Virus record (IMG/VR): IMGVR_UViG_3300028048_000123
Location: 1 to 64,000 of that record
Direction: 5' to 3' (one strand)
Length of the DNA stretch: 64,000 nt
Source of the DNA: a virus
Lineage: Duplodnaviria > Caudoviricetes
Below the pieces are notes generated by a model. The model saw only the letters and a list, made by a program, of their open reading frames with translations, was not told where the DNA came from and did not search any database. Each line of letters starts with the position of its first letter. The first letter of the stretch is position 1. A program made the position numbers and the translations under genes. Shown here one piece after another: positions 1-62,070 of the stretch.

Positions 1-444
1 GCTTAAAATTATTGAATAAAGATCAGCCGAACTATCGCCAGGGTCAGGTAAGTCTTCTTCAAAAACTAATGAATACACATAATTTTTATCATGTAAATAA
101 CCAACTGTTTCACTAGCTTTTGCAGTAGCTTTATAAAGCTGTCTTGTTGCACAATATTGCAAAGCCATATCATAGTTTGCAACTGTTATATGATTTTGTT
201 CAGCTCAACCTTCAGCTGTATATAGTACAGGACCCTTTGCAGCGTATCTTTGTGAAGTCTTCCCAACATATTTTACAAAATCTGCTTGTGTGTTAAGCTC
301 TAAAACCCCATTAATATCAGCAGCTGCATCATATACATTAATATTATCTGACTTAACAAAGCCTGGTACAACTACCGAAAAGTTAGCATATGCGGCTACG
401 CCTGTTGTAGAAAGATCATATTCATTTATTATTACATTAGGCAT
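1..444 (-). CDS. Tail sheath protein (gp18-like), N-terminal part, runs off window; 1 TGA read as Trp
   Basis: Start MPNVIINEYDLST resembles sheath N-termini; frame stays open past TGA 205-207 to the window edge; follows a gp15-like gene as in T4. Confidence 0.6.
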
Positions 445-494: not shown

Positions 495-504
495 TAATTT
501 AGCA
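495..504 (-). promoter_or_regulatory. Candidate late promoter TGCTAAATTA (sheath)
   Basis: Recurrent intergenic motif 50 nt before the ATG. Confidence 0.7.
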
Positions 505-7257: not shown

Positions 7258-7980
7258 TTAGTAACTTCCTGAACTTATAGGTCCAATTAAGTTAGAATTA
7301 TCTCTTAGTCTTTCTCTTAGCTCTTTTAGCTCTTCATTTCCTTCAGCAAGAAGTGTATCACCATCTTGCTCCCATTGAGCTCCTGAATGTTTAAATCTTG
7401 ATCTGATTCGACCTTCCCAAATCTTAGCTGTTGCAACACACATTCTTGTTATAATGTCAATCCAGTAATCGCTTTCTACATCTTCAATAGTCGGTATTCT
7501 TGGTATATACTCAATAGTTACCATTCCAGGATTTGCCATATAGTTATTGATATATAACTTCTTTTCATGTGTATCTTCTACAAAAGACATATCTGTTGAA
7601 AGTGTATTTCTTATTTGATTTAATGTGCTCCAAGAAGCATAATTTAAGATATACTCACTTAGGTTATACATAGTTCCGCCAGAGCTAAATAATAACCATT
7701 GTTGAGCATAAGCAGGGTCTAATAAATCAGTGCCACCAGTAGAAGACCCAACAGCAGCTGTTCTATATACTTTAACAACTGAACTGCAATTAAAATCCTT
7801 TAAGTCAATGCACTTAGCAAAAGGCACCGTGATAAACTTAGATTCATCCCAATAGCGGCCAACTTCTCTTAGCACTTGATTTACAATAGCTTTATATTGA
7901 GCATCTTCTAAATCGCTTTCAAGAACACCACCACCGGTAATTGCATTACGAGTTTCTTCTATTAAATCTTGTAGCTCCAT
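7258..7980 (-). CDS. Neck/head-tail adaptor (gp13-like), 240 aa
   Basis: C-terminal DGDTLLAEGNEELKELRERL matches the gp13-type ending; T4-like synteny. Confidence 0.65.
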   Translation of the reverse strand: MELQDLIEETRNAITGGGVLESDLEDAQYKAIVNQVLREVGRYWDESKFITVPFAKCIDLKDFNCSSVVKVYRTAAVGSSTGGTDLLDPAYAQQWLLFSSGGTMYNLSEYILNYASWSTLNQIRNTLSTDMSFVEDTHEKKLYINNYMANPGMVTIEYIPRIPTIEDVESDYWIDIITRMCVATAKIWEGRIRSRFKHSGAQWEQDGDTLLAEGNEELKELRERLRDNSNLIGPISSGSY

Positions 7981-8033: not shown

Positions 8034-8043
8034 TAATTTAGCA
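8034..8043 (-). promoter_or_regulatory. Candidate late promoter (neck operon)
   Basis: TGCTAAATTA before the gp13-like gene. Confidence 0.7.
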
Positions 8044-26121: not shown

Positions 26122-27138
26122 CTAATTTTCCTTATTTTCTTCCTTTAATCAATTTAATATTTCACCTTTATTGTAAAACACTAAATAATTTAGTTTATTG
26201 GTTAAAGCACTTGCATGCTTTCTTATATCTAAGTCTGTTCAAGTATAAATAGCATTTTTATAATATTTAGATACTAAAGCTTTTTCTGTTCAATTAGTAA
26301 GCTTAGACCTACAAATATCTAGTTCTGGGTCAAATGGCATCCCGCCATGTGTTCAAGTAATATGTAATTCTATAAACAAATCTAATGATTTTATATAAAA
26401 ATCACATTCAAATGGATAACGAGAATCGTTGCTATAGTGCCAGACCACATCACTATCTCCATACTTTTCTTGCAATAGCTTATAAAATTCTTTTTCTATC
26501 CTTGAAGTATTAAATGTACTATTTAATTTTTGTGTCCTATATTTCTTAGCTAATCAATTTTCAGCATTGGTACGAAGCTCTGTTTTTCGTTTAGAACAAG
26601 CTGAGTACGAAGTAACACCATATTTTTGTAGGCATGTCTCTGAGACCCTATTTTTATACTCAGATGTTTTGGTGTATCAGTCTACTCCATATTTTTTTAG
26701 ATTCGTAGCCCTAATTCTTTTTATAGTAGCTTCGTCTTTAGTTATATTATCTACATTATACTTGTCTACTAAAGTTTGTTTTAGGTTTTTTAGCATTATA
26801 TCCATCTTTTCTTCAGCTGTATGCTCAATTATATTATACTCAGCAAAAATTTCACGTAAATGCTTTTCTTTTATATGAAATTTGCTACAAGTGCTTTTTA
26901 TATTATTGTCTTTGTAAAAATCAATAATAGCCTTTTTATCTAATTCAGTAAGGCTTGCTTTTCGGCTTTGCCCTCGTCCTCAGCTAGCTGGATGCCTTTT
27001 AATATTGTTATCTGCTAGTATTTTATTATAATTAGGTCTAGACAATCCAAATTTTTGCATAGTGCTATTATCGCTATGTGTAGACTGATACTTAATTAAT
27101 TCAGCTATTTCTTCAGGGCTTAAAACTTTACGCTTCAT
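26122..27138 (-). CDS. Homing endonuclease-like protein, 338 aa; 7 TGA-Trp; absent from the ORF track
   Basis: KKYGV repeats; C-terminal RYPFECDFYIKSLDLFIELHIT-W-THGG is paralogous to 16800..17675. Confidence 0.75.
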
Positions 27139-27943
27139 TATTTTCCTCTGGCTTATTGGCTGTTATTGTTCCTTTGCCTGTAGCTGGATTTTTATTTGAG
27201 CCTTTTTGTATTTTGCCTCTATTCTGTGCTCAAGTATTTATCGTTTCAATAGTATGCTTATCACTGGTCAAGTCAACGTCTTCCGGCACTAAATTATAAT
27301 CTGCAGCCTCATCAACTGTAATACCATATAACTTTGGAAAAATAACCTTTAAAAAAGTATCATGCATATTCTCATCTAAATAAAATATATAGTTTTTAAT
27401 GCATGAAGCAACTTTCATCAAGAAGTCTTGATTAGAAAGCACTAAAAGAATATGCTTACAACCTCTACCTTTTTCATCTCTTGGGTTTCTAATGCCTTTT
27501 CCTGGGCCTGGATCTTGTGCTGTGTCATCTACCGATACATTATTTACAATGTTTCAGTGGGCATAGTTAAAAGTATGGTCCGGGCAAGTACATTTTATAT
27601 AGATATTAGCAGTATTAAAAATCTTTGTCAAAGCTTGTATTATAGTTCTAAATTCAAGCTTGTATTTATTATTTTTAATATTTTTAGCTATTTCAGCACA
27701 TACACCTTCCATTTTAACTGTAACAGTATAGCTATCTGTCTCGCCTGTTACTGGCACATCAAATTGTAGTATATCTTGCTTAAAGAACTTATTCATGTCT
27801 ATGCTCGAATACGATTTAACTTGATTAGCAATCTTAGAATAGCGTTTTCTTTCAAATCTATTTTTGCCACGAGACCTATCTTTGTAGTCTCCTACATTTC
27901 TTGATTTATTTATTAAGGTTGTACGTGTATCTTCTAATAACAT
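27128..27943 (-). CDS. SWIM-type zinc finger protein, 271 aa; 2 TGA-Trp
   Basis: CTCPD...GCKHIL joined across TGA 27554; ends TAA 27128. Confidence 0.7.
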
Positions 27944-27972: not shown

Positions 27973-27982
27973 TAATTTAGCA
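27973..27982 (-). promoter_or_regulatory. Candidate late promoter (SWIM-terminase-portal operon)
   Basis: TGCTAAATTA 30 nt before ATG 27943. Confidence 0.7.
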
Positions 27983-30009: not shown

Positions 30010-32820
30010 TTAGTCTTCCTCTACTTCATCAATTTCTTCATATTCAGGCTCTAAACCTTGATATTCGGCCATTCTTGCTGGAATTACAAACTTCATATTG
30101 CAGGCATCACAGCATCTACCTTCGCTCTTAACTGGGGCTGGATTATTTCCATAGCCATCAATTTCTTCACCACAGATACAGCAGATGCCACCCTTAGCTT
30201 CAGTTAATGTTTCACCAAAAGCATTTACAGGTGCAAAGTCTAAATCAAAAGCTTCATAAATTTCTGGTTCAACTTCTGGAAGGTCAGCTACTGTTAGTCT
30301 GTCTTCATATTCTTGCTTAACTGGCTCTCTTTCTAAGTTCATATCTGTACCAGTGAAGTGCTTACGTTTTTCTTCCTTTTTAACATATAAGTCATAGTCC
30401 ATAATTCTAACATGGTTTTTATCGTATAATACGCCTTCATCGTAATAATATATAATATCATTATTTGTTAGCTTATGTACGTCCTCATTATCAACTAGGT
30501 TCTTTAATGAATAAACAGAACAGTTTTCACCCTTGTCTCCAATAGCAATAAGAGCTTTAATAATACCAGCTTTGTTAGCGCAATAAATATTTTGTGGTCT
30601 TATGTAGTATCTTCTAACTTCACGCTTTGCTTCATTTAAGTTTTTAATGCCTTCTATTAGCTTGCTTTCTAAGCCTTCATCAAGCTCTGCTAGCATACTG
30701 CTTAATCTGCTAGTGATCTCAGGGTCAGAGCTTAACACATTTAATATATTCTTAATATCGTCTACAGTAATAGAGTAACGCTTGCAGATATGGTCTATAA
30801 TTATTTGTGCTACTTCTGTCTTACCCAAAGTTATAGCATAGAGCAATCTTACAAAGAATGCCTTTAAACGTTTATATAACGGATCCTTAGAATACTCTAT
30901 ATCATGTAGTGTTGACTTTATGCTGCTTGGGTACAATTCAATTTCTTTAAATTCAGCTAGCATTAAATCATCTACACTAGGTGCTACCAATCTCTTTTCA
31001 GCAACCCAGACTTTTGGAATAGCTACACCTTTTGACACCATTTCAGCTTCAAGTCGTTTTAAGGTATCTGTATAACCATTAACTCTGCATATGTTCCAGT
31101 TATATTCTAGTTTTTCAGGAGACATAGCTTTTATGCCTGTGCCGGCACGGTCTCTTGTGCCTTCTTCAGTGTCTTTCATTTTCTGAAGTTGTGTAGCATA
31201 GTCTAATCTAACTTCAGTAAGTTCTTGAGCTTCTGCTAAAGATTCAAATGTTTCATTTCCCAATGTTTCATAAGGTGTCTTTAAGAAATAAATTTGGTTT
31301 GTATATAAAGCTCTAACTTGTGGCTTTGCTAGCATACCATTTGAAATCTTAGACCTTGTTTCAAAATTCTTTTCAGAACTTAATTGAACAGCATCAATAG
31401 TTTTAGCATCTGATTCAAGTTGAGCTCTAATCTTATTAGCTAAATCAACTATTTCTCATCTATGCTTCTTAGGTTCGCCTTTAGCTGTTACGCCATATAG
31501 AAGGTCATCAGCTATTTTCTCAACAGCAGCTAAAATAGTCTCTTCAAGTAATTCACGAGACACTTTAATATAACCATTGCCATCAAATATATCAAGATAA
31601 TATGTTACTACTGGATAGCTTCCAACTCTTGGATAGAATAGAATAGTATTATAGTTATCCTTTGTTATCGTGCCATCAGCTTGTACCTTTGTATTTGTAT
31701 ATTGCTTAACAATTTTATTTGCACTTGCATAGTTTGCTGAGAAATCAGCTTCTCTATGAGCAAGTGGTCTTCTATTTTCATGATGTCCAGCATCATTACC
31801 AATAGCCATAGTATCTTTAGCTATTTGAAGTCTTCTTTCTCTGTTAGTATCATCATTAGCTCTTGCTTCAATATAGTCAATACCTGTATAGCCAAGTAAA
31901 CGAGTACACTTTAATAATGTAAATTTATCCTTTAGCTCTGAATAGAAATAAACTGGAGTGGCATAACCAACTTCAAATTCTTCTTCCGGCTCAAGTTTTT
32001 CTAAGGCATCTTCAATTTTTTTCTTTTCTATAATATGAAGCCCATTTGGTAAATCAATGTCTTCACCAGCCTTAGCAACATACATTTTATCTTCATCAAG
32101 ATCAATAGCTTCTTCTAAGCTTTCATTAATATTTAATGTATCCCACATAATACCATTATTAGTATAATATAAATGCTTCATACCTTGTGTAGTATCTACA
32201 TCTACCCCTTTATAAGTAACACCATCGTCAATACTACCGCCATGCTCTACTTGAGTAATTGTATCATTACTTTTATTTTCTATGTAATCAAAATCTATCT
32301 CATCAAAATATAAAATAAGGTCTTCTTTATCAAAATATGGCACAGCAAAACCATTCCAATCTTCATTTGGATCATAATAACCCTTAACTCTAACGTCTGG
32401 GTCTACACAATAAAAAATTGCAGGCTTAAGAGCAGCAGTATCTTCATGTAAGCTTTCACCCATAGCTCCTCCGCCTTCACCGCTGGCAGTTCCACCATCA
32501 CCTGCGCCTGCATCTCCAGCACTTGCACCTGCATCTCCTGCAGCTTCAGCAGCAGCTTCTCCAGGTCCAGCTACATCTACAGCAGCTCCTGTACCAGCAT
32601 CTATGGCAGCAGCTTCAGCATCAACAGCTATTTCTACAGCATTAGCTTCTTTTTCTGCTTCTTTAGTAGCATCTTTTATTTGGTCTTCAAAATCTGTTCC
32701 CATTCTTTTATTGAACATTTTGCAGTTATAATCTGGATTTCCAGTTGTAAAAGTCAAGTAAGCACCACTTACTTTCTTCTTCTTTTTCTTATCTGCTTCT
32801 GTTAAACGTAGTTTAATCAT
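30010..32820 (-). CDS. Large acidic hypothetical protein, 936 aa; 1 TGA-Trp; C-terminal CCxC...CCxxC motif
   Basis: Fragments 31456..32820 and 30010..31335 join via TGA; Ala/Gly-rich linker; LxE motifs. Confidence 0.7.
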
Positions 32821-32854: not shown

Positions 32855-32864
32855 TAATTTAGCA
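32855..32864 (-). promoter_or_regulatory. Candidate late promoter (936-aa and NTase genes)
   Basis: TGCTAAATTA before ATG 32820. Confidence 0.7.
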
Positions 32865-38688: not shown

Positions 38689-38698
38689 TAATTTAGCA
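38689..38698 (-). promoter_or_regulatory. Candidate late promoter (MoxR-vWA operon)
   Basis: TGCTAAATTA inside the inverted repeat 38671-38703. Confidence 0.65.
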
Positions 38699-40566: not shown

Positions 40567-41361
40567 TTAATCCTCTTTCTTATATTCCCATTTATATCCA
40601 CCAGCATTTTTTCGCTGGCCTTTACATACTCTACAAATATTGCCTACCTTTATATTTAATTCACTGGCAGCTTCAGAAAGGCTATTCCATTCTTTTATAA
40701 TAGCACCAGTAGCTATGTCTATTTGATTTATATGTATATTTCCTAATGTACCATTTTTAATTTTAGTTTCTAATGCTTTTGTATAGCTTTCTGGTAGCAT
40801 TTTTTGCAAAGCTCTTCTTTCTCTTATTTTTTGTCTTGTAGCTTCATCTCTATGTTTTCCTAACCAGTAGCGTCTTGGGTTTTTTAAATTATCTTGTCTT
40901 ATTTTTTCTTTTGTTTTAGCTGAATGATGTTTTCCTTTCATTGCAGATGGTTTACCATTTGGAAAAACTTCTTTAAGCCGCTGTTTAATTTTTGCTTTTG
41001 TTTCAGATGAATGCTTATAGCCAATTGATCCTTCACCACCTTTTGTTAAGTTATATCCAGCAGGTACATTATCATAAATATAAGTATGATAATAAGCTAT
41101 CCAGTATTTTTCTCTTTCATTGGCTTTTTCTATTGTTTCAATATTATCTTCTAATATTTCATGAGCCCAAGCTGTATCCCAGTTCTCTAAACCATGTTTT
41201 TTAATAGCCCTTGCAAATAAAGTATCTTCAGTTAAATAGCCTTTACCATCTTTCCATCTTTTATTTGGCTCATTAGCACAGGTTTGCCCGATATAGCTCC
41301 AGCCTTTATGGTCACAATCTATAATTAATGTATGTTTATAAATAATCCAACTCATAATCAT
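40567..41361 (-). CDS. GIY-YIG homing endonuclease with NUMOD3/NUMOD1-type domains
   Basis: IIYK...SYIGQT, EKYWI, GYNLTKGGEG, HSSETKAK, AGGYKW. Confidence 0.85.
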   Translation of the reverse strand: MIMSWIIYKHTLIIDCDHKGWSYIGQTCANEPNKRWKDGKGYLTEDTLFARAIKKHGLENWDTAWAHEILEDNIETIEKANEREKYWIAYYHTYIYDNVPAGYNLTKGGEGSIGYKHSSETKAKIKQRLKEVFPNGKPSAMKGKHHSAKTKEKIRQDNLKNPRRYWLGKHRDEATRQKIRERRALQKMLPESYTKALETKIKNGTLGNIHINQIDIATGAIIKEWNSLSEAASELNIKVGNICRVCKGQRKNAGGYKWEYKKED

Positions 41362-41372
41362 TTGCCTCTTAA

Positions 41373-41382
41373 TAATTTAGCA
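41373..41382 (-). promoter_or_regulatory. Candidate late promoter (GIY-YIG endonuclease)
   Basis: TGCTAAATTA just before the SD. Confidence 0.6.
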
Positions 41383-44908: not shown

Positions 44909-45118
44909 TTATTTCATCTTCTTCATTACTGACATTAAGTTTGCATTTTCCAAAGCATTTAAACTCTTATCCATTTCTTCAATATAATTATTTAATGAGT
45001 TTTTTAGCTTAAAATTTATACAACTTGTCATTATTGCTGTTCTTGAATACTTATTGCTAAATATTCCATTTATAAACTTTAATCTTGTTTCAAATGTTCT
45101 TTGTTCTTTATTTTCCAT
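44909..45118 (-). CDS. Hypothetical protein, 69 aa
   Basis: Short intact coupled ORF. Confidence 0.55.
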   Translation of the reverse strand: MENKEQRTFETRLKFINGIFSNKYSRTAIMTSCINFKLKNSLNNYIEEMDKSLNALENANLMSVMKKMK

Positions 45119-45509
45119 TCTTCTGTAATTGTCCTCTATTAACATTATATTGCTTAATTACTGGTATTATTTTTAAGTACATATCCATTGCATCATCTTT
45201 TTGTTTTGCTGTTAGATCCCCAAGTTTTTTAACTGCATCTGTTAAAGTCATCATGTCAATATTTACATATTGATAAATCAACAATGCATTAGTTAAAACT
45301 GCAAAATCCTTTTCAGATGGAATAGTAATTGTTTTTCCGGCAAAATAAGTTAATAGTCTTGTTAAATTGCTGCCATCCAAAAGATAGCATAATTCACTTA
45401 ATACTGCATATTCTGGAATATCTTGCACTTTGTATAAGCAAAATAACATTAGTGAATATACATCTGATAGGTGCAAGGAATTTAGGTTTGCTTTAATGCT
45501 AGTCTTCAT
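45108..45509 (-). CDS. Possible Mor-family transcription activator, 133 aa
   Basis: LTRLLTYFAGKTITIP resembles the Mor-family KL..FGG..IYIP motif, followed by a helical C-terminus. Confidence 0.4.
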   Translation of the reverse strand: MKTSIKANLNSLHLSDVYSLMLFCLYKVQDIPEYAVLSELCYLLDGSNLTRLLTYFAGKTITIPSEKDFAVLTNALLIYQYVNIDMMTLTDAVKKLGDLTAKQKDDAMDMYLKIIPVIKQYNVNRGQLQKNGK

Positions 45510-46320
45510 AGTTATCCTCCATAGGTGTAGAAAGCATATTCTTTAGCTCAGAATCTGAAATACTTGGAAAAGCTTCCTGGTAGTCTTCAATAATTTCTGT
45601 CTTTAGTTGTGTGTAGAATTCTCTTAGTAGGATTCTCACATAGCTTCCCATAGACTTAGGTAACTTTCATAAGACTACTGCTGCTGGCTCTACGTTTAGC
45701 TTTTTATCAGCTTGAACAGTAAAATAGCAATTCAAAAGCAATGAAATCTTAATTCTCTTGTGTTCTATAGTCCCTGGCCCAAATGGTGACTTCTCTAAAA
45801 TCTTATCAATGATTCTCCCAGCCCCATTAATAGTAAACTTTAACTGCTTAATAAAGTCTTCCATAGCACCTTCTGTATAAATCATTTGGCTCTTTAGTCT
45901 TTCTGTAAAAGCATAAGCATCAAACTTTTGAGAAGTATACTCATCTGACATAACCTCTCTGAAAGTCTCGTTTTGATACTCAACCTTCATAGGATACATC
46001 AATTTCTTCATATAGTTTAAGCAAGACTTAATAGGTCTAATTTCTTTCCCCTTAATAATCTTGCCCCTATTGATTATGTTTTTTCTTAAAGCAAAAAATA
46101 ATCTGTTTGCAGCATGGAAGGCAAATGGGTCATAGTCTTCAAAGCTGTCAAACATGCACTTTTTAATAGCAAGTGCTTTAACAATAAGTCATAAATAGTT
46201 GTAAATTGTATTTTCAATTTCTGGGTTAGATCCTGCTGGCACTAACTTGTCCATGTTTTCATCAATATACATGCACAACTCCGTATACTTCATTCCATCA
46301 GGCTTTTTCCAAAGCATCAT
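45499..46320 (-). CDS. Candidate late-transcription sigma factor (gp55-like), 273 aa; 2 TGA-Trp
   Basis: SD GGAGA, ATG 46320, TGA at codons 44 and 218, TAG 45499; ENTIYNYLWLIVKALAIKKCMF resembles gp55 [21 protein letters not shown]; adjacent to gp46/47 homologues. Confidence 0.45.
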
Positions 46321-46354
46321 AAAAAAATTCTCCTTAAAAAATTATCACTATTAT

Positions 46355-46362
46355 ATTATACA
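46355..46362 (-). promoter_or_regulatory. Sigma70-like -10 element before the candidate late sigma gene
   Basis: TGTATAATATAATAGTG, intergenic. Confidence 0.55.
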
Positions 46363-46390: not shown

Positions 46391-48271
46391 TTAAGCGGCA
46401 CAGATTTCACTTATGCCATCAACTGACTTTATAATCTTAATTTCTGAGTCAATAGGGATTTCCAAGCTTTCCGAGTGATGTGAAATAATGAATACAGACT
46501 CAATATTTTGTAGCTGTGTAGTAACTAAATTCATAACTGCGCTACAGCTCTTACTGTCAAGATAGTCAGTAATTTCATCTAGCACTAAGATATTAGAAGT
46601 ATAGCCAAAATATGAGCACATTAGGTCTCTAATACTTAGCTGAATAATCAAGTCGCATCTTTGTCTTTCGCCACCTGACAGGTTATCAAGCATTTTACCA
46701 CAATACTTAATATCTAAGTTATTTCCATCTAAATAAATAGAAAGCTCCTTAGTGCCAAAAACTATTTGGCAGTATTCCTTAGCTTTTGTATCTAAAAATT
46801 GAATAATGTTTTGTAATAAATAGCCTCTAAAATCACGCTTTATTAAAGTATCCATTTTCTTTAGCACAGCACTGTGCTCAGAAAGTCTTAATTTTTCAGC
46901 ATTAAATGTTTCTAAAGATTTATCTAGCTTTTCAATAGCTTTTATATTGCTATCAATTTGCTCGTCAATAGTCTTCAAAGTAGCTTCATGAGTTGTATAG
47001 CTATCTACTAAGCTCTTTAAATCTCCTTCTGCTGTCAAATGTGCTTGGTATAAATAATCGCTATCATCTTGTTCTTTTTGCTTATCTTTAGCTAATTGTT
47101 TAAGCTCATCGTCAATAGTTTTTAGTGCATCTTCGTACTTTTTAGTAATTGCTGCTCTATCTGCATTATATTTAGTATCTAGCGCGGTTTTTTGATCTTG
47201 TAGCTTATTTATTTCTTCAGCTAATAATTTGCCCTTGTTTCTTTGCTCAGTTGTATCTGGTTTATGAGCTCCTGGTATCTTTTGTCCGCAAGTAGGGCAA
47301 GTATCTTTAATAGCTTCAAGTCTTTGTATTTCGTTAGCTAATAAGCTTGCTTCTGCATACTTAGCTGAATAACTTTCATCAAGTTTTGGCTTTTCTGCTC
47401 TATATTTTTCATCAACTTTATTAAGCTCTTCATTTTGGGCTGTAATTAGAGTGCTTTTCTTTGCAAGCTCCTTAGTTGTGGCCTCATCTATCTCTTTAAT
47501 AGCCTTTACAATAGCTTCTCTATCCTTTTTGTTTTGTTTTAGAAACTCTGTAAGCTCTCCTATTCTTTGTTTCATAGCAGATAGGTCTTGTGCCTCAACT
47601 TTAGTTTTTTTGTCCTTTAATTGGTCAATTTGGGCTTCATATAGGCCTTTTTGAGAGTTAGCTTGAATAATAGACTTATTATTATCAGTTTCTTGACCGC
47701 CAATAACAGCTTGTCTATCGCTTAGTCTTGTTTTAATATCTTCAAGCATAAAATCAGACTTAGTTAGCTTCTCTAAAAGCTCTTTTCTACCGCTTGGGCT
47801 GAAAGATGAGAATTTAGCTGGCATACCTTGTCCTAAAAGTATTGTTGAAGCTATTAAATCTCTATTTAGATCAGGCAACATTTCTTCGAGCTTTTTACTT
47901 GACTCTTTAATGCCCTTTCCTGATACATTTATGTCATTTTGAATAATTGTTAAATCTGATTTAGGTGCAATATATCTTGTAATTACATAGTTATCTTTAT
48001 TATAGCTAAATGAAAGCTCTACATAGCTATCTGGCTCATCATTAAAGATATTCTTTAGATTAGTATGTAAGCCACTTATAGTCATTCCTGTAATAGCAAA
48101 GCAAATAGCACTAAAAGCAGCCGATTTTCCAGCTCCATTACTCTTAGCATTATCCTTTGCATAGTTATTTTCACCTGTAATTAAGCAGAAACCCTTGTTT
48201 TGTAGGTCAAATTCTGCATGGTTGTAACTTAAAAAGTTATGTAAAACTACTTTTTTAAATATCAGTCCCAT
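46391..48271 (-). CDS. sbcC: SbcC/Rad50/gp46-like ATPase
   Basis: NGAGKS Walker A, CPTCG zinc hook, LSGGE signature, LVLDE, ISH. Confidence 0.9.
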   Translation of the reverse strand: MGLIFKKVVLHNFLSYNHAEFDLQNKGFCLITGENNYAKDNAKSNGAGKSAAFSAICFAITGMTISGLHTNLKNIFNDEPDSYVELSFSYNKDNYVITRYIAPKSDLTIIQNDINVSGKGIKESSKKLEEMLPDLNRDLIASTILLGQGMPAKFSSFSPSGRKELLEKLTKSDFMLEDIKTRLSDRQAVIGGQETDNNKSIIQANSQKGLYEAQIDQLKDKKTKVEAQDLSAMKQRIGELTEFLKQNKKDREAIVKAIKEIDEATTKELAKKSTLITAQNEELNKVDEKYRAEKPKLDESYSAKYAEASLLANEIQRLEAIKDTCPTCGQKIPGAHKPDTTEQRNKGKLLAEEINKLQDQKTALDTKYNADRAAITKKYEDALKTIDDELKQLAKDKQKEQDDSDYLYQAHLTAEGDLKSLVDSYTTHEATLKTIDEQIDSNIKAIEKLDKSLETFNAEKLRLSEHSAVLKKMDTLIKRDFRGYLLQNIIQFLDTKAKEYCQIVFGTKELSIYLDGNNLDIKYCGKMLDNLSGGERQRCDLIIQLSIRDLMCSYFGYTSNILVLDEITDYLDSKSCSAVMNLVTTQLQNIESVFIISHHSESLEIPIDSEIKIIKSVDGISEICAA

Positions 48272-48692
48272 CTATAGTATCTCCTAATTCCATCCAACTT
48301 TGCATATTTGTGCTAACTAAAGCCCAAAATGTATTCCAATGTTGCTCTGACTCAACTAAATAGTCTGTCATAGCACCGATAAAAGACCTTCCATTTTTTG
48401 GTTGAACATCTGCTTTGGCTTTATCTATGTCAAAATACTTATTTATGCAGTCAGTATAATCTGTAATTTCTGAAACAGCCGAAGTAAGTGAAGCTATTTT
48501 AATGCTATTCTTAGTATTCTTTTCTTCACTTGTTAAAATGTAATAATCTCGCATAAATTTTAAATACGTAATAAAATAATCCATTGGATTCATAAATTCT
48601 TTATATGCTTCCTTATGTGCTTTCTTTAATTGCTTGTCATAAAGCTTATATAATTTATGATATTTTTTTTCAAAAGTCTTAGCTCTACTCAT
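48255..48692 (-). CDS. Hypothetical protein, about 145 aa
   Basis: ATG 48692 coupled to the upstream TAA. Confidence 0.65.
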   Translation of the reverse strand: MSRAKTFEKKYHKLYKLYDKQLKKAHKEAYKEFMNPMDYFITYLKFMRDYYILTSEEKNTKNSIKIASLTSAVSEITDYTDCINKYFDIDKAKADVQPKNGRSFIGAMTDYLVESEQHWNTFWALVSTNMQSWMELGDTIDGTDI

Positions 48693-49024
48693 TATTCGCT
48701 CCTGTCTTGTTTTAACCACCAAGTTGTCTTGTAGCCAATCCATAAGAAATCATGATGTTCACATCTATTGTCAACATTTTCTGTTCTAATAAAATCTTTT
48801 TCAATCCATATTATTCTCCACCAATTGCTATTTTTGTCAAAAATATAGGAATTATTATGTAATTGACATCTAACTTCAAGCGGACAACTTACTTGTTCTT
48901 CTAAATCTTCTAATTTGCCTAATTTATTAACTAATTGCTCCTCAGATAGGTAACAATATCCTTGTTCATCTTGCTTATATTCATAGCGTCCCAAATCTTT
49001 TCTAAACTCTGTTAATCTTTCCAT
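48692..49024 (-). CDS. Hypothetical protein, 110 aa (paralogue of the next gene)
   Basis: Shares CP(L/V)EV and C-terminal W.LK.DRSE with 49024..49359. Confidence 0.7.
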   Translation of the reverse strand: MERLTEFRKDLGRYEYKQDEQGYCYLSEEQLVNKLGKLEDLEEQVSCPLEVRCQLHNNSYIFDKNSNWWRIIWIEKDFIRTENVDNRCEHHDFLWIGYKTTWWLKQDRSE

Positions 49025-49359
49025 TATTCACTCCTATCGTCTTTTAAAAACCAAGAACCTGTATATTCACACCAAAAATAGCAATTATCCAATCCTTGTC
49101 TGTCTGATTCTGTTTCAAAATAAATACTCCAAACTTTTTTAATATCATAATAGCAATTATCATGTGGATTAAATACTTTACCTTGTTTAATTGCTTTAAG
49201 TATAACTTCTACTGGACAGCCAAATTCATACTCTAGTTTTAGTAAATTCTCTATATAGTCTAGTAAGTCTCTATAGTCACTGCTTAATTCTGCACCCTCT
49301 TTACGAGGCTCTGTTATACAAGAGGCTTTTATTATCTCAAATCTATCTAATCTATTCAT
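49024..49359 (-). CDS. Hypothetical protein, 111 aa (paralogue of the previous gene)
   Basis: Shares CP(L/V)EV and C-terminal W.LK.DRSE with 48692..49024. Confidence 0.7.
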   Translation of the reverse strand: MNRLDRFEIIKASCITEPRKEGAELSSDYRDLLDYIENLLKLEYEFGCPVEVILKAIKQGKVFNPHDNCYYDIKKVWSIYFETESDRQGLDNCYFWCEYTGSWFLKDDRSE

Positions 49360-50408
49360 TATTTACAAATCTCTGCTAATTCTTGATCTAAAACAGCCGT
49401 ATTTTCAATGCTTTGTCTGCAACACTTCTCAAACTCGGCTATATGATTAATTGCTAAGTCCTTAATGTCTAATGTAATAGCATCTGTGTCTAAAGCTGTT
49501 TGTACTAAAACTATTCTTGACTCAACTATCTTATCTGAAAGTGAAGCTAGCACTTCTTTTGCTTTTTCAGTTAAGCTTGCAGCACATCTAACTGATAAAA
49601 CTGCATTATCTTTAACACTCTTTAGGATTTCTAAATCTTCTTCCTTCAAAACATCAAACTTATAGAAGTTCAAACTATAAGGGTTCTCAAAGAATTCAAG
49701 TTTTAAGGTATCTGTGTCTAGTACCCAGGCTCCATATTTATAATTTAATGAATCATTTGTGAAATTATGAGCTGATAAACTACCTAAATTCAAAACATTT
49801 TTAGTTATAAAGTCTTGATTATGTAAGTGCCCATTTAAAGTTAAATCAAATTGTTTAGATAAATCCTCATAAGGAAACCCTATTTTACTAATAAATCCAC
49901 CGTAGTTAATTCCTTGAATATCAACATGTGAAAATAGTATATATTTATCGCCTTCATCTAGCTTAAAGTAGCTTTCAAGTGGCTTTCTGTCTGACTCTGT
50001 TACATATGGTAAAAAACAAAACCATGTATTAGGGCTAAAAGCATCGATAGGTGTTATACAAGGCTCATCAATAATAAAGTGGTTTCTTTCGCCTAGACCT
50101 AACACATTTAAAGTGCTAAATTGTAAGTCCATCGTACTTGATTCATGATTTCCACAAACAAAATATTTATCAAGCTCATTCCACTCTATTTCTTTTAAAG
50201 CTGTTACTTCTTCATCATTAATTATATCTTTATCAAAGAAGTCGCCACAGCATACCATAGCTCCGCAAGCTTGTTCTATGGCTAAGTCATTAACCCAATT
50301 CATACTCTTAATAAGATACTCAAGTCTTTGGCTATATTTAGCGCCACGCTTAGTAACTATTGAAGACTTCTTGTTCCAATGCACATCCGTAAATACGCAG
50401 ATCTTCAT
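49359..50408 (-). CDS. sbcD: SbcD/Mre11/gp47-like nuclease
   Basis: FTDVH, GDFFD, GNHE, SH and GHLH metallophosphoesterase motifs; next to SbcC. Confidence 0.9.
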   Translation of the reverse strand: MKICVFTDVHWNKKSSIVTKRGAKYSQRLEYLIKSMNWVNDLAIEQACGAMVCCGDFFDKDIINDEEVTALKEIEWNELDKYFVCGNHESSTMDLQFSTLNVLGLGERNHFIIDEPCITPIDAFSPNTWFCFLPYVTESDRKPLESYFKLDEGDKYILFSHVDIQGINYGGFISKIGFPYEDLSKQFDLTLNGHLHNQDFITKNVLNLGSLSAHNFTNDSLNYKYGAWVLDTDTLKLEFFENPYSLNFYKFDVLKEEDLEILKSVKDNAVLSVRCAASLTEKAKEVLASLSDKIVESRIVLVQTALDTDAITLDIKDLAINHIAEFEKCCRQSIENTAVLDQELAEICK

Positions 50409-51193: not shown

Positions 51194-51628
51194 CTATTCA
51201 ATAATAAACTTTACTGCTTTACTTGCATCAATATCTGCATAATAGATTTCATTTGTAAGCATTGGATCTACCACAACTAATGCTTTACCAGCATCTCCAT
51301 CAAATTCGCCTGCCATGTAAGGTCCTAAAATTGGCATATCACTACTGCGCTTAAAATCACTATTAAATGAAATTACTGGCACAAAACTTGCTGGAATAAT
51401 TAAAATTGGTGCTTTTAAGTCATCTGTTCCTAAAGCCATAACTCCTTTTGTAAATAGCTTATTAACATAACCTGCATAAGCATCTAGCTTTGATTTAGCA
51501 CCAACTAATGAATCTCTCCAGTGTGGCACTTTTCTTTCTAAATCAGGTGTTGCATAAGCTTTAATATCATCTAAAGCATTTGTCAAAGCTGTATAGTTAA
51601 TTTCTTCCCATAATTCTTTTGCTGTCAT
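51194..51628 (-). CDS. Hypothetical protein, 144 aa
   Basis: Intact ORF. Confidence 0.7.
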   Translation of the reverse strand: MTAKELWEEINYTALTNALDDIKAYATPDLERKVPHWRDSLVGAKSKLDAYAGYVNKLFTKGVMALGTDDLKAPILIIPASFVPVISFNSDFKRSSDMPILGPYMAGEFDGDAGKALVVVDPMLTNEIYYADIDASKAVKFIIE

Positions 51629-51629
51629 A

Positions 51630-52427
51630 TTATTTATTCTCCTTCTTAAACTTATTTTTCAAAGACTCAAGTGTTTTTTCTGTGTTTTTAACATTATATT
51701 TTGTGCATTTGCCAATAGCATACACATTGTCAACTCCTGGAATAAGCCCATTTTCAACAATTATATAACCTTCTTCATCAAGCTTCAGCATTCTACTAGA
51801 AAAAGTTGCTGTATCTGGCTTTTTTCCTAATGATACATACAAAGCATCACAAGGAAGTTCTGCTAATGTACTCAAGTAGACTTTATTTAGCTTACCATCA
51901 ACATCATATTCATAGCTTTGTATTTTGCTCATTGGTAAATAGCTTATATTATCATATCTTGGCTCAATTTGTTTCTCAACCAGCTGAGCTAAGCTGTTGC
52001 TTTCTTCACAAATAAATACTTTATCTGCTTTTCTTGAGATAGAAATAGCTTCATTTATTGTATTAGCATTATTACCAAAGACAACTACATTTTTTGCGCC
52101 TTTTTTAATAGCTTTTACATTATAATATACATTATTATCTGGTTCATTCATCAATTTTGTTGCAATTTGTCCTGTAGCAAAGACCAAATTTTTAGCTAAA
52201 TAAGCCTCTGTATAAGAAATAATAGCTACAGCAACCCCATATGAATACTGTGCATCAACAACTGTCCTCTCAATAGCTTCAACACCCTTTACTTGCTTAG
52301 ATACTGTACTGCTAATAAGTAAGATTTTAAGCTCAGAATTTAACTTATAGAGCTCTTTTATAAGATCTAGCCCTTCTTGACTTTCACCAATAACTATTAA
52401 ATCATAAATTAAACCATTTAATGCCAT
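51630..52427 (-). CDS. Degenerate thioredoxin reductase-like protein, 265 aa
   Basis: YDLIVIG, LVFATG, DALYVSLGKKP and LDEEGYIIV are TrxB scaffold motifs; GxGxxG and CxxC are absent. Confidence 0.7.
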   Translation of the reverse strand: MALNGLIYDLIVIGESQEGLDLIKELYKLNSELKILLISSTVSKQVKGVEAIERTVVDAQYSYGVAVAIISYTEAYLAKNLVFATGQIATKLMNEPDNNVYYNVKAIKKGAKNVVVFGNNANTINEAISISRKADKVFICEESNSLAQLVEKQIEPRYDNISYLPMSKIQSYEYDVDGKLNKVYLSTLAELPCDALYVSLGKKPDTATFSSRMLKLDEEGYIIVENGLIPGVDNVYAIGKCTKYNVKNTEKTLESLKNKFKKENK

Positions 52428-57338: not shown

Positions 57339-58415
57339 CTAATTGTTGTTTTTTGTTTCTAAATAATTAAGAGTTTTACCTTCTATTACTCTTCTATGCT
57401 TTAATATTTCAAAAATTATTCCACGTGATAGGTCAAGTCTTACATCCATACTGGCTTCTTTTATAGTGCTATAAATAATATTTTGCTCTATTCAAACTAC
57501 TTTTTTTCCGCTATTTATACCACGTTTTTTTGCTGCCATGCTCATTTTCTTTTTACTTTCCTCAGAAAAGTGCTTTCCAGTGTTTCATGGCTGATGCCCA
57601 GTTTTTCATTGGCCAGAATTATCGATAGAACATTTTTTTACTATTTCTGAACTTTCTTTTGTAAGGCCTTTATTTCAAGGGGTTCTTCCAAGATGAGCAA
57701 GTCTATTTTTTTCACGTGAAGCAGCTGATGGGTAATGTTTAGCTATACAATTTTTTGGCAATCTACCCAGCTTTCAACCCTGCTCTATATAGCTAGCTAA
57801 TTCATTAGGCATAACCATTTTTTCAAGCATTCCATTATTAATTGTTTTTCTGCCTTTTATTTTATCCTTATTTGCTAACAGTAATTTTAATTTCTGCTCA
57901 TCTGTCATAGGCAATTTCCCTATTTTTCAGTCTGGATTTTTAGCTAAAAAATCTTGCAAATTTTTACCACTGACATATCGCTGACTTACTGCATTATTAA
58001 CTCACTTTCCATCTCTAAGACGTATAGAGTCATTCTGTTTATCTAATATATATAAGTCATTTAAGTTGCTTACTATTGATAATACTTCTGTTTCTGTTAA
58101 ACTATTATCTGCAATTAATCTATTGCTTAGATAAGTAAGTGCTCGAAGCATACAATTATTAAATCACCCCTTGCTGCATTTATATAAATAATAGTGAGCT
58201 AAAACATGGTCTTTATAAGTTAAGCACACTAGATTAGACTTAGAACTATCTACCTTAATATTATTGTGCTTAAAATATGCCCTTGGTATAATATGATGTT
58301 TTTGAGTTTCAAATTTGGTATATTGCTTATTATAAGTGCTAACTAAATAAATATACTTATCTAAGTATTCATTATCAATAAAAATAGCTAAATCAAGTAA
58401 TTTTTGTTTTTCCAT
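57339..58415 (-). CDS. HNH homing endonuclease with NUMOD3-type repeats, 358 aa; 8 TGA-Trp
   Basis: HHIIPR...NLV.L...H..AH; G-W-KLGR, P-W-NKG, K-W-VNN at TGA positions; TAG 57339. Confidence 0.85.
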
Positions 58416-58434: not shown

Positions 58435-58444
58435 TAATTTAGCT
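58435..58444 (-). promoter_or_regulatory. Candidate late promoter (HNH 57339..58415)
   Basis: AGCTAAATTA 20 nt before the ATG. Confidence 0.65.
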
Positions 58445-60565: not shown

Positions 60566-61044
60566 TATTTATCCTCCATAATACTTGGAATAACTGTATA
60601 ATCTGAATCCATAAATGTTCTTTTCTTGACTGATGGGATTGCTACTATATTATACGATGTGTCTTGAAGCATTTTAATATTGATTGATTTAAAGTCTAAG
60701 TCCTTTAATCTTTTAATTTCCTCTATTCTAACTGCTATAACTTTATCATGCGAAGAAAACCAAATAATAACATAAGGATTCACACCTTCTAAGCCGCTAT
60801 AACTTAACATATCTTCATATTGTGTTAGTTTTGCAAAATTAAAAGTATTTTCCTTAGTTTCTTTGCACTCAAGCATCCACAATTGCTTATTTACATATGC
60901 TAAATAATCACAAGGATTTTGTGATGTAACCTTATAGCCTGACATTTGATCCTTCAGTCTAAATAAAAATGTATTTGGAAAACAGCTTCGCCAATTCTTG
61001 GCAAATCTATCTTCAAATTGTTTACCTAAAGTTGTTTTACTCAT
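60565..61044 (-). CDS. recU: RecU-like Holliday junction resolvase
   Basis: GKQFE, PCDY, LECKET, then QYEDML. Confidence 0.75.
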   Translation of the reverse strand: MSKTTLGKQFEDRFAKNWRSCFPNTFLFRLKDQMSGYKVTSQNPCDYLAYVNKQLWMLECKETKENTFNFAKLTQYEDMLSYSGLEGVNPYVIIWFSSHDKVIAVRIEEIKRLKDLDFKSINIKMLQDTSYNIVAIPSVKKRTFMDSDYTVIPSIMEDK

Positions 61045-62029
61045 TTATTTGTATCTTTCCTTTTGTTATTTTGTGTTTAATAAGCAATTTCTTAATAAAA
61101 GCCTCGCTACAATTATATTTTTTTGCAATATCAGCTCTTGACCAATTTTGTCTTACATAAAGCTCATATAAATAATCTGCTGTGAGTTCATTTTTAATAT
61201 TATCAAAATACTGCTTCTTTGTTATATTATGATTAGCTAAAAATATTACCATTTTATCAACAGGTATATTAAAATGGGCCGCTGTTTCGTATTTATTATG
61301 ATTTTGGTTTACAAAAAAATCGTATACGTCTTTTTCATTTATTTTTAAATAAAGCTGTTCATGCTTACATATGCCATATTTTTTATTTAATACAATTAAT
61401 TTTGCAGTACAACATCCAAAATGGCTAGCTGTTTCTGTTAGTGTATGATTTTCATTTTTATAATATTGTATAAGCTCTGCTTTACTTGGTGTATAGTAAT
61501 TTGGAATTACTATATTATATTTTTTAAGCTTTGCTCTAAAGTATGATTTACTACAGCCAAAAAAATCACAGGCTTCTTTTTTTGTATGCCCTTCAACTAT
61601 GAGATAATTATATAATCTATCATAAGTTAAGCCAAGTTCTAGCTTTTCATATAAAGCTTGCAAATCTTTATAATCAGCTTCACTGAGCTGCTTTTTCTTT
61701 AAGTCATCTCGCCCAATTCAATGAAGCATGGATCTAACTGCTTTTAGATTAGCTGCAGCCATAGTATCAATTGTATGTAAAGCTAAGAAATAATGTGCTT
61801 TAATATGGTCAGCATAATGAAGTCTAACTAAATTTGTGCTGTTATTATCTATAGCCATATTATTTTGCTTATAGTATGCCCTTGGAATAATGTGGTGCAC
61901 TTGACAACCTAGTTCTGTATTAGGCTGTGCATTATCTACTAAAAATTGTAAATAGTTTTTGCAATCAGCCTGCTCTTTAAAAATAGCTATATTGCTAAGC
62001 TCTGTCATTTTTATATGTATATTAAGCAT
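61037..62029 (-). CDS. HNH endonuclease with repeated HTH units, 330 aa; 1 TGA-Trp
   Basis: HHIIPRAYY...H..AH domain paralogous to 57339..58415; TGA 61718 joins it to 61037..61663. Confidence 0.75.
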
Positions 62030-62060: not shown

Positions 62061-62070
62061 TAATTTAGCA
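62061..62070 (-). promoter_or_regulatory. Candidate late promoter (HNH-HTH gene)
   Basis: TGCTAAATTA 32 nt before the ATG. Confidence 0.65.

Follow-up and report, generated by a model that had tools for sequence, protein, structure and literature searches.

The stretch of DNA analyzed here, hereafter the window, comprises the first 64 kb of the 76,464-bp IMG/VR record IMGVR_UViG_3300028048_000123, which was judged to be 34% complete. Its guanine-plus-cytosine (GC) content is 32.6%, and every gene, like every other feature of the window described below, is on the minus strand. This report concerns the gene at 45499..46320, designated P0001, whose 273-codon frame is open only when TGA is read through and whose product has a predicted sigma factor-like fold. 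The host of the gene is a T4-superfamily phage of the cattle gut with a genome of roughly 220 kb. DNA of this phage was detected in bovine gut sequencing runs, and contigs carrying the P0001 family reach 237 kb. The major head protein is similar to T4 gp23 and matches 1,166 phage records; its nearest cultured matches are in the Bacillus phages vB_BceM-HSE3 and SP-15 and the Listeria phage LIS04.

The left arm of the window (to ~38.6 kb) holds the structural genes for the major head protein, prohead protease, portal, terminase, and adaptor, and contains 54 TGA codons. The right, early arm is a T4-style replication and recombination module with genes for a DNA polymerase piece, the clamp, clamp loaders, a UvsX-like recombinase, resolvases, an exonuclease, SbcD, SbcC, a peptide deformylase, and a topoisomerase. 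The upstream operon neighbor of P0001 is the gene of an SbcC-like nuclease subunit (46391..48271; phrog_77, E = 2e-74), in which all Trp codons are TGG. The gene of the SbcD-like subunit (49359..50408) has phrog_100 and Metallophos matches. Upstream of P0001, a perfect early-type extended −10 element, TGTATAAT, can be read directly at 46355..46362, and a Shine-Dalgarno (SD) sequence, AAGGAG, lies between this element and the ATG (46330..46335). A preliminary description of this DNA had noted a host-type −10 element and the proximity of SbcCD, and both observations hold.

Translation of the P0001 frame with genetic code table 11 gives fragments of 43, 162, and 50 residues, the first being the 43-residue stub that had been anticipated. 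Of the three Trp codons, two are TGA and one is TGG. The in-frame TGA codons, codon 44 (46189..46191) and codon 218 (45667..45669), both fall on invariant Trp positions in an alignment of 28 homologues, and TGG stands at these positions in standard-code relatives. The 44 open reading frames (ORFs) of the early arm (38.7–76.4 kb) besides P0001 contain 90 TGG and three TGA codons. Two of the latter, in ORF 48255..48764, belong to a first-ATG extension and precede the real start, which is codon 25 according to the orthologue alignment. The third (codon 31 of ORF 51194..51751) is located in an overlap with the upstream gene, and probably outside the real coding sequence. The only other TGA-bearing genes of this arm encode homing or HNH endonucleases (57339..58415 and 61037..62029, with eight and one TGA, respectively), and each is preceded by the late motif described below. 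With the three codons discounted, the original claim was confirmed: apart from endonuclease genes, no gene of the 38-kb early arm other than P0001 has in-frame TGA.

A conserved partner gene of 133 codons, P0002 (45108..45509), overlaps the end of P0001 by 11 nucleotides (nt), so that its SD sequence (GGAGGA) and ATG are situated inside the last codons of P0001. P0002 is highly conserved and always adjoins P0001 in the relatives examined.

Predicted fold and sequence family of P0001

The large, uncultured P0001 family has at least 783 homologues as counted by a word search, and a full hidden Markov model search gave 507 clusters at 50% identity. An AlphaFold model of P0001 based on 61 diverse sequences had a predicted local distance difference test score of 88.9 and consists of two helical domains (residues 5–124 and 135–265) with a disordered linker between them. 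The N-terminal domain (residues 1–125; 45946..46320) is predicted to comprise four helices and a basic hairpin in a fold similar to sigma region 2 and to gp55, the late sigma factor of T4. We compared the model with 48,161 representative PDB chains using VIA-align. The best solved match for residues 12–122 was chain 7d7d_F (Z = 8.1, root mean square deviation of 3.1 Å, 98 of 137 residues), which was checked and is T4 gp55. Sigma factors, mostly their region-2 domains, occupied about 20 of the top 50 structural rows, with SigB, ShbA, pro-sigmaK, sigmaE, SigC, SigW, BldN, WhiG, sigmaA, sigma32, and sigma28 appearing after gp55. When the top 1,000 Foldseek candidates were re-aligned, full-length sigma factors came first (SigB, Z = 8.0 over 155 residues), and an earlier, weaker model of P0001 gave the same sigma ranking. 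An ESM-Atlas neighbor cluster of P0001 carries Sigma70_r2, and family members show hardly any variation in a putative recognition helix, IKS.LNY.K..LYPMK. The C-terminal helical domain (residues 135–265; 45526..45918) has no assignable fold. Its best match is a mitoribosomal protein (Z = 8.6); SigB, sigma32, and sigmaA could be aligned only loosely and over the whole chain.

Several results weigh against a sigma-like identity. According to the notes of the aligner, Z values of ~8 fall in a range that helical bundles commonly reach, and the same list contains TetR C-domains and SRI domains with scores of 6.6–7.2. Foldseek searches of the PDB with both models returned nothing at E ≤ 0.001, and the C-domain (residues 151–253) showed no sigma-4 match as a separate domain. 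At the sequence level, P0001 has no Pfam match and no PHROG match (PHROG at E ≤ 0.1), none of 61 family members matches a sigma family of Pfam, including Sigma70_r2 and Sigma70_r4, at E ≤ 1, and a PDB sequence-profile search was empty. An hhalign comparison of P0001 with a 27-sequence gp55 alignment gave a non-significant probability of 0.16%. P0001 also lacks the gp55-type C-terminal sliding-clamp-binding tail (LDFLY): family C-termini read ED.YED, where gp55 homologues read L(D/E)FLY.

The comparison with a single gp55 sequence was likewise not significant, and a tblastn search of GenBank phages with P0001 and two distant members gave no match. In T4, the positional analogue, located after gene 46, is RpbA. 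The hhalign probabilities against T4 RpbA were 0.16–0.17% for P0001 and P0002. A role of ED.YED as a clamp-binding tail was considered and dismissed, since its codons overlap the SD sequence and ATG of P0002; the embedding of these elements in the last codons of P0001 accounts for the conservation of ED.YED.

The gp55-like sigma factor of the preliminary description is thus upheld at the level of the fold, with gp55 as the best solved match in VIA-align, but not by Foldseek against the PDB or by the sequence profiles of Pfam, PHROGs, and hhalign. The by-eye match to gp55 on which that description relied is the sole local hhalign alignment, and its register agrees with that of the structural superposition, although it does not attain significance in hhalign. 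The predicted models support P0001 being sigma-like by fold, not by sequence, and we consider it probable that P0001 is a sigma-like RNA polymerase factor.

The same data can be read in another way, in which P0001 is no transcription protein but assists the SbcCD recombination or replication module as a helical accessory, and its resemblance to sigma factors reflects a common helical arrangement. Co-transcription with sbcC in most relatives, a Z value of ~8 in the chance range for helical bundles, and the lack of sequence similarity to sigma factors fit such an accessory. Against it, sigma factors fill about two fifths of the top structural rows with two independent models, and the partner P0002 has a Mor-like lead. 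Moreover, the nuclease genes are TGG-only and P0001 is TGA-rich, suggesting that its product is required at another stage than theirs. We regard an SbcCD accessory as quite improbable.

The preliminary description had also suggested that P0002 is a Mor-like co-activator. An ESM-Atlas neighbor cluster of P0002 is named Mor family, a lead derived from a language model. P0002 has no Pfam or PHROG match, and none of 17 family members hits Pfam Mor (PF08765). The hhalign comparison with Mu Mor was not significant (probability 2%, E = 0.023), nor was that with Mu C (E = 0.26), and a PDB sequence-profile search gave weak AimR and SRP72 noise only. P0002 is similar in size to Mor and C, and its segment FAGKTITIP aligns with GGGQVYIP of Mor. 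A Mor-like partner is therefore only a lead.

TGA and TGG codons in P0001 across relatives

The P0001 gene contains one or more TGA codons in each of the 15 recoded genomes examined, whereas standard-code relatives use TGG throughout. The positions of the TGA codons vary among the recoded genomes (3, 17, 43, 82, 146, 186, 199, 209, 217, and others), so the positional conservation proposed as a check of code gating was not found. What is conserved in recoded relatives is the enrichment of TGA. In 11 recoded relatives, P0001 genes contain 34 TGA and 8 TGG codons compared with 19 and 56 in neighbors within 3 kb (Fisher p = 7e-9, uncorrected for shared ancestry). In the complete recoded genome G004, P0001 has four TGA and no TGG in an early region, more than 40 kb long, where TGA is scarce. 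The enrichment extends to G006, which has a GC content of 51.8% and a third-codon-position GC (GC3) of about 0.75. Both of its P0001 Trp codons are TGA, and the surrounding region of about 30 ORFs has about 66 TGG and 2 TGA. This retention is hard to explain by drift toward AT. The enrichment relative to TGG-only neighbors is a stronger argument for code gating than positional conservation, and it is still indirect.

In most relatives, the P0001 gene starts 3–20 nt after the sbcC stop codon with only an SD sequence between, which indicates that one transcript carries both the TGG-only sbcC and the TGA-rich P0001. In the standard-code relative G003, a single stop was found in 59 homologous alignments and no tRNA-UCA is present. 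Because standard-code relatives have TGG, the lock is an add-on of the recoded lineages that is not intrinsic to the factor. A tRNA with the anticodon UCA is encoded in the recoded genomes G004 and G005, and that of G004 is located in the early region directly behind TGTATAAT. Full-length P0001 very probably requires TGA suppression.

The question of whether the TGA bias was selected as a gate is more delicate. P0001 could be a sigma-like factor for late promoters whose TGA codons are a passive by-product: a protein needed only after the code switch would tolerate drift from TGG to TGA. The variation of positions between lineages agrees with such drift, as do the working TGG forms of standard-code relatives and the AT richness of most relatives, which favors the change from TGG to TGA. 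In addition, the TGA share of P0001 (81%) is about that of the late genes of G004. The 52%-GC genome G006, however, keeps both TGA codons beside TGG neighbors, although a return to TGG would be expected from drift under GC pressure. The presence of at least one TGA in every recoded genome examined also leaves the full-length protein dependent on suppression in either case. We consider the passive origin unlikely, and a selected gate to be possible, at slightly less than an even chance.

Other observations count against a gate. No tRNA was found on the window or on the 34%-complete contig, and hence no tRNA(UCA) there, and none of the 33 tRNAs of G006 is a tRNA(UCA) with a canonical loop. A small gene upstream of sbcC also bears TGA in several relatives, so that the lock is not exclusive to P0001. 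Furthermore, early synthesis of both the suppressor and the mRNA of the factor might leave only a short delay. In G006 (L088), a tRNA gene at 121229–121304 on the minus strand has a 6-nt anticodon loop (CTCAAC) and was called 'SeC|Leu' by ARAGORN; this tRNA might be a suppressor.

Putative late promoters and their candidate reader

The motif GCTAAATTA occurs 12 times on the coding strand of the window and not at all on the other strand (3.3 expected), and 11 of the 12 copies are 12–65 nt upstream of gene starts. Four copies are at or beyond the boundary of the arms: 38689..38697, upstream of the first TGA-bearing late unit, and 41373..41381, 58435..58443, and 62061..62069, upstream of the homing endonuclease gene 40567..41361, the TGA-rich homing endonuclease gene 57339..58415, and the HNH endonuclease gene 61037..62029, respectively. 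In the left arm, the copies at 32855..32863 and 27973..27981 precede the late genes 30010..32820 and 27128..27943, that at 21442..21450 precedes 21111..21377, and that at 21053..21061 precedes the unit of the head protease and major head protein. Further copies are upstream of 13365..14288 (14317..14325), the adaptor-like gene 7258..7980 (8034..8042), and ORF 1..444 (495..503). The copy at 12823..12831, within ORF 12445..13365, is the only non-intergenic one.

The strand bias is also seen in relatives, where the coding and other strands have 36 and 5 copies in G004, 39 and 3 in G003, 36 and 3 in G005, and 27 and 1 in the 52%-GC G006 (control count of 0). The extended late consensus is ttATtT-GCTAAATTA, and no conserved −35 element was found upstream of it. 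The core TAAAT is common to GCTAAATTA and the T4 late motif TATAAATA. G006 retains this AT-rich 9-mer despite its shift in base composition.

The TGTATAAT element of P0001 is one of nine sites of the TGTATAATATA class on the coding strand of the contig, of which eight are intergenic and just upstream of genes; the ninth (26104) is 19 nt upstream of the called start of terminase, a late gene. Within the late arm, TGTATAAT sites are thus found upstream of terminase and also of a small-gene block (15981). Beyond the window, at ~75.8 kb (contig positions 75827–75853), TGTATAAT lies 18 nt upstream of a GCTAAATTA motif. With these placements, the two promoter classes are interleaved. In a recoded relative (L021, 2915–2965), both GCTAAATTA (−85) and TGTATAAT (−37) are located upstream of the P0001 gene, an arrangement that would allow positive autoregulation.

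We searched for other proteins that might read the late promoters. Five relatives that are 95–100% complete contain no Sigma70_r2 above the cut-off and no beta or beta-prime domains, and the two complete relatives tested with phrog_12791 (G003 and G004) gave no match. On the 34%-complete contig itself, there is no match to Sigma70_r2 (PF04542), phrog_234, or phrog_12791. Three candidates were rejected: a weak Sigma70_r2 match in G003 (E = 0.0076) has no homologue on this contig; a G003 match at 205.5 kb is a fibre-like protein; and the tblastn matches of sigma-like ORFs from SP-15 and LIS04 at 15500..15583 are due to chance, the 92-residue ORF there not being sigma-like. From the co-conservation of the motif with P0001 and the lack of any other detected sigma factor or phage RNA polymerase, we infer that P0001 reads GCTAAATTA, a view that we hold slightly more readily than its opposite. 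The context, comprising a gp23-like head, the clamp, clamp loaders, UvsX, and SbcCD, together with the absence of a detected rival reader, favors a transcription factor that works with the host RNA polymerase.

A point against this assignment comes from SP-15 and LIS04, which carry a P0001 homologue and, separately, weak extracytoplasmic function (ECF)-like sigma ORFs. The homologue in these phages need not be the late sigma factor, and the transfer of function between the two phage groups is weakened. P0001 could bind RNA polymerase or a sigma factor as a modulator of host transcription (anti-sigma factor, appropriator, or inhibitor), with another factor reading GCTAAATTA. The gene directly after SbcC in Staphylococcus phage phiSA_BS1 (L065, 5906–6544) is annotated as an anti-sigma factor, and the C-domain of P0001 without an assignable fold would suit a modulator. 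The predicted fold, however, matches sigma region 2 itself and not known anti-sigma factors, and the sigma-like ORFs of SP-15 and LIS04 are without a homologue in the phage family of P0001, in whose complete relatives no other sigma factor or RNA polymerase was found. From a host shut-off factor, one would also expect early expression and a gene free of TGA. A modulator is accordingly rather unlikely, somewhat more so than a passive origin of the TGA codons. In large myoviruses, factors directed at RNA polymerase seem to be encoded repeatedly at the position behind sbcCD, the Twort-like staphylococcal phages being another case.

A possible regulatory circuit and known parallels

A circuit can be proposed in which P0001 is a late-promoter factor of the sigma type. 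The N-domain of P0001 would dock on the beta-prime clamp helices of the host RNA polymerase, as sigma region 2 and gp55 do, and P0001 would direct the polymerase to late promoters without a −35 element and with the consensus given above. The translationally overlapping P0002 may act with it. The P0001 gene would be transcribed with the TGA-free early and middle genes, from its own TGTATAAT in this phage and after sbcC in most relatives. Under the standard code of the host, its translation would halt at codon 44, and the full-length protein would be made only once a phage opal-suppressor tRNA(UCA) decodes TGA as Trp. The gene of this tRNA would itself be behind an early-type promoter, as seen in a relative. 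Late transcription would then lie downstream of the code switch, and TGA-containing late mRNAs would be made only when they can be translated.

The proposed wiring therefore runs from an early promoter to the suppressor tRNA, to the sigma-like factor, and to the late promoters. For this chain as a whole, with P0001 as a late-promoter factor that is gp55- or sigma-like, a sequence orphan, and dependent on TGA suppression for its production, we consider the arguments on the two sides to be evenly balanced. P0001 would be a highly diverged two-domain member or an analogue of the sigma-70/gp55 class. A bolder version, which we put forward tentatively and with less confidence than the chain itself, is a code checkpoint. 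Here, selection would keep the factor in the alternative code, against GC pressure, inside a standard-code operon, and the suppressor tRNA, in a feed-forward AND gate, would license the transcription as well as the translation of late genes. The factor would be the first member of a new branch of the gp55/sigma-70 class, one that is a sequence orphan and is marked by a fused C-domain and a Mor-like partner.

T4 gp55 (PDB 7D7C and 7D7D; phrog_234) is the closest parallel. Both genes lie close to SbcCD homologues within a replication and recombination module of the T4 type, and both phages have −10-only late promoters with the shared core and rely on the host RNA polymerase. The preliminary description had placed T4 gene 55 beside genes 47 and 46; it is near them but not adjacent, since ~3.1 kb with a-gt and mobB separates it from gene 47. 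The two systems differ in several respects. P0001 has 273 residues compared with 185 in gp55 and possesses an extra C-domain of 130 residues; there is no detectable sequence similarity and no LDFLY-type tail in P0001. The late motif is GCTAAATTA here and TATAAATA in T4, and the P0001 gene is downstream of the nuclease genes, whereas that of gp55 is upstream.

P0001 also resembles group 3 and 4 sigma-70 factors (SigB, sigmaE/ECF, and SigI) in having two helical domains and a flexible linker. The region-2-like N-domain gives Z values of 6–8, and the alignment with SigB covers 155 residues. In contrast to these factors, P0001 has no r2 or r4 Pfam match, its C-domain gives no sigma-4 match as a separate domain, and its putative promoters have no −35 element. 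Compared with Mor and C of Mu, P0002 lacks family members that hit Pfam Mor, in addition to its low hhalign probability.

Bacillus phage SP-15 (Thornevirus) carries true homologues of both genes, which are annotated as hypothetical: SP15_139 for P0001 (hhalign 90%, E = 1.6e-6) and SP15_140 for P0002 (97.7%, E = 2e-12). They overlap each other and occupy the same place after SbcD-SbcC. Unlike the present phage, SP-15 uses the standard code, shows no enrichment of GCTAAATTA, and has a different recognition-helix sequence. These two genes offer a culturable model. With the reading proposed here, an orphan family of more than 500 clusters at 50% identity would gain a probable role as an RNA polymerase specificity factor, with its likely promoter defined.

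Stop-codon recoding has been described as a switch for late-gene translation, with recoded stops enriched in lysis and structural genes (Borges et al., bioRxiv 10.1101/2021.08.26.457843). The present phage family shares with those phages the use of TGA as Trp in structural genes, standard-code early genes, and a phage suppressor tRNA in relatives, and its size fits the roughly 200-kb TGA-recoded clades. It differs in that the gene recoded consistently within a standard-code operon encodes a candidate for the regulator of late transcription. In the literature that we consulted, recoding is described as a timer of lysis and structural genes and a recoded sigma factor is not mentioned; the term sigma factor has no occurrence in the above preprint. 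The coupling of recoding to the transcription program is the gap addressed here.

Some genes of the window depart from the codon pattern of their surroundings. A third endonuclease gene (40567–41361), also behind GCTAAATTA, has nine TGG and no TGA, and may therefore have been acquired recently from a source with the standard code. In the recoded left arm, the region 14451–21010 with the major head protein, the prohead protease, and a small-gene block is devoid of TGA. The major head protein and prohead protease are the most highly expressed late genes. Downstream of P0001 (42926–45509), seven to eight small genes contain no TGA and one TGG in ~900 codons, and the orthologous small-gene blocks of relatives (L002–L036) mostly have neither codon.

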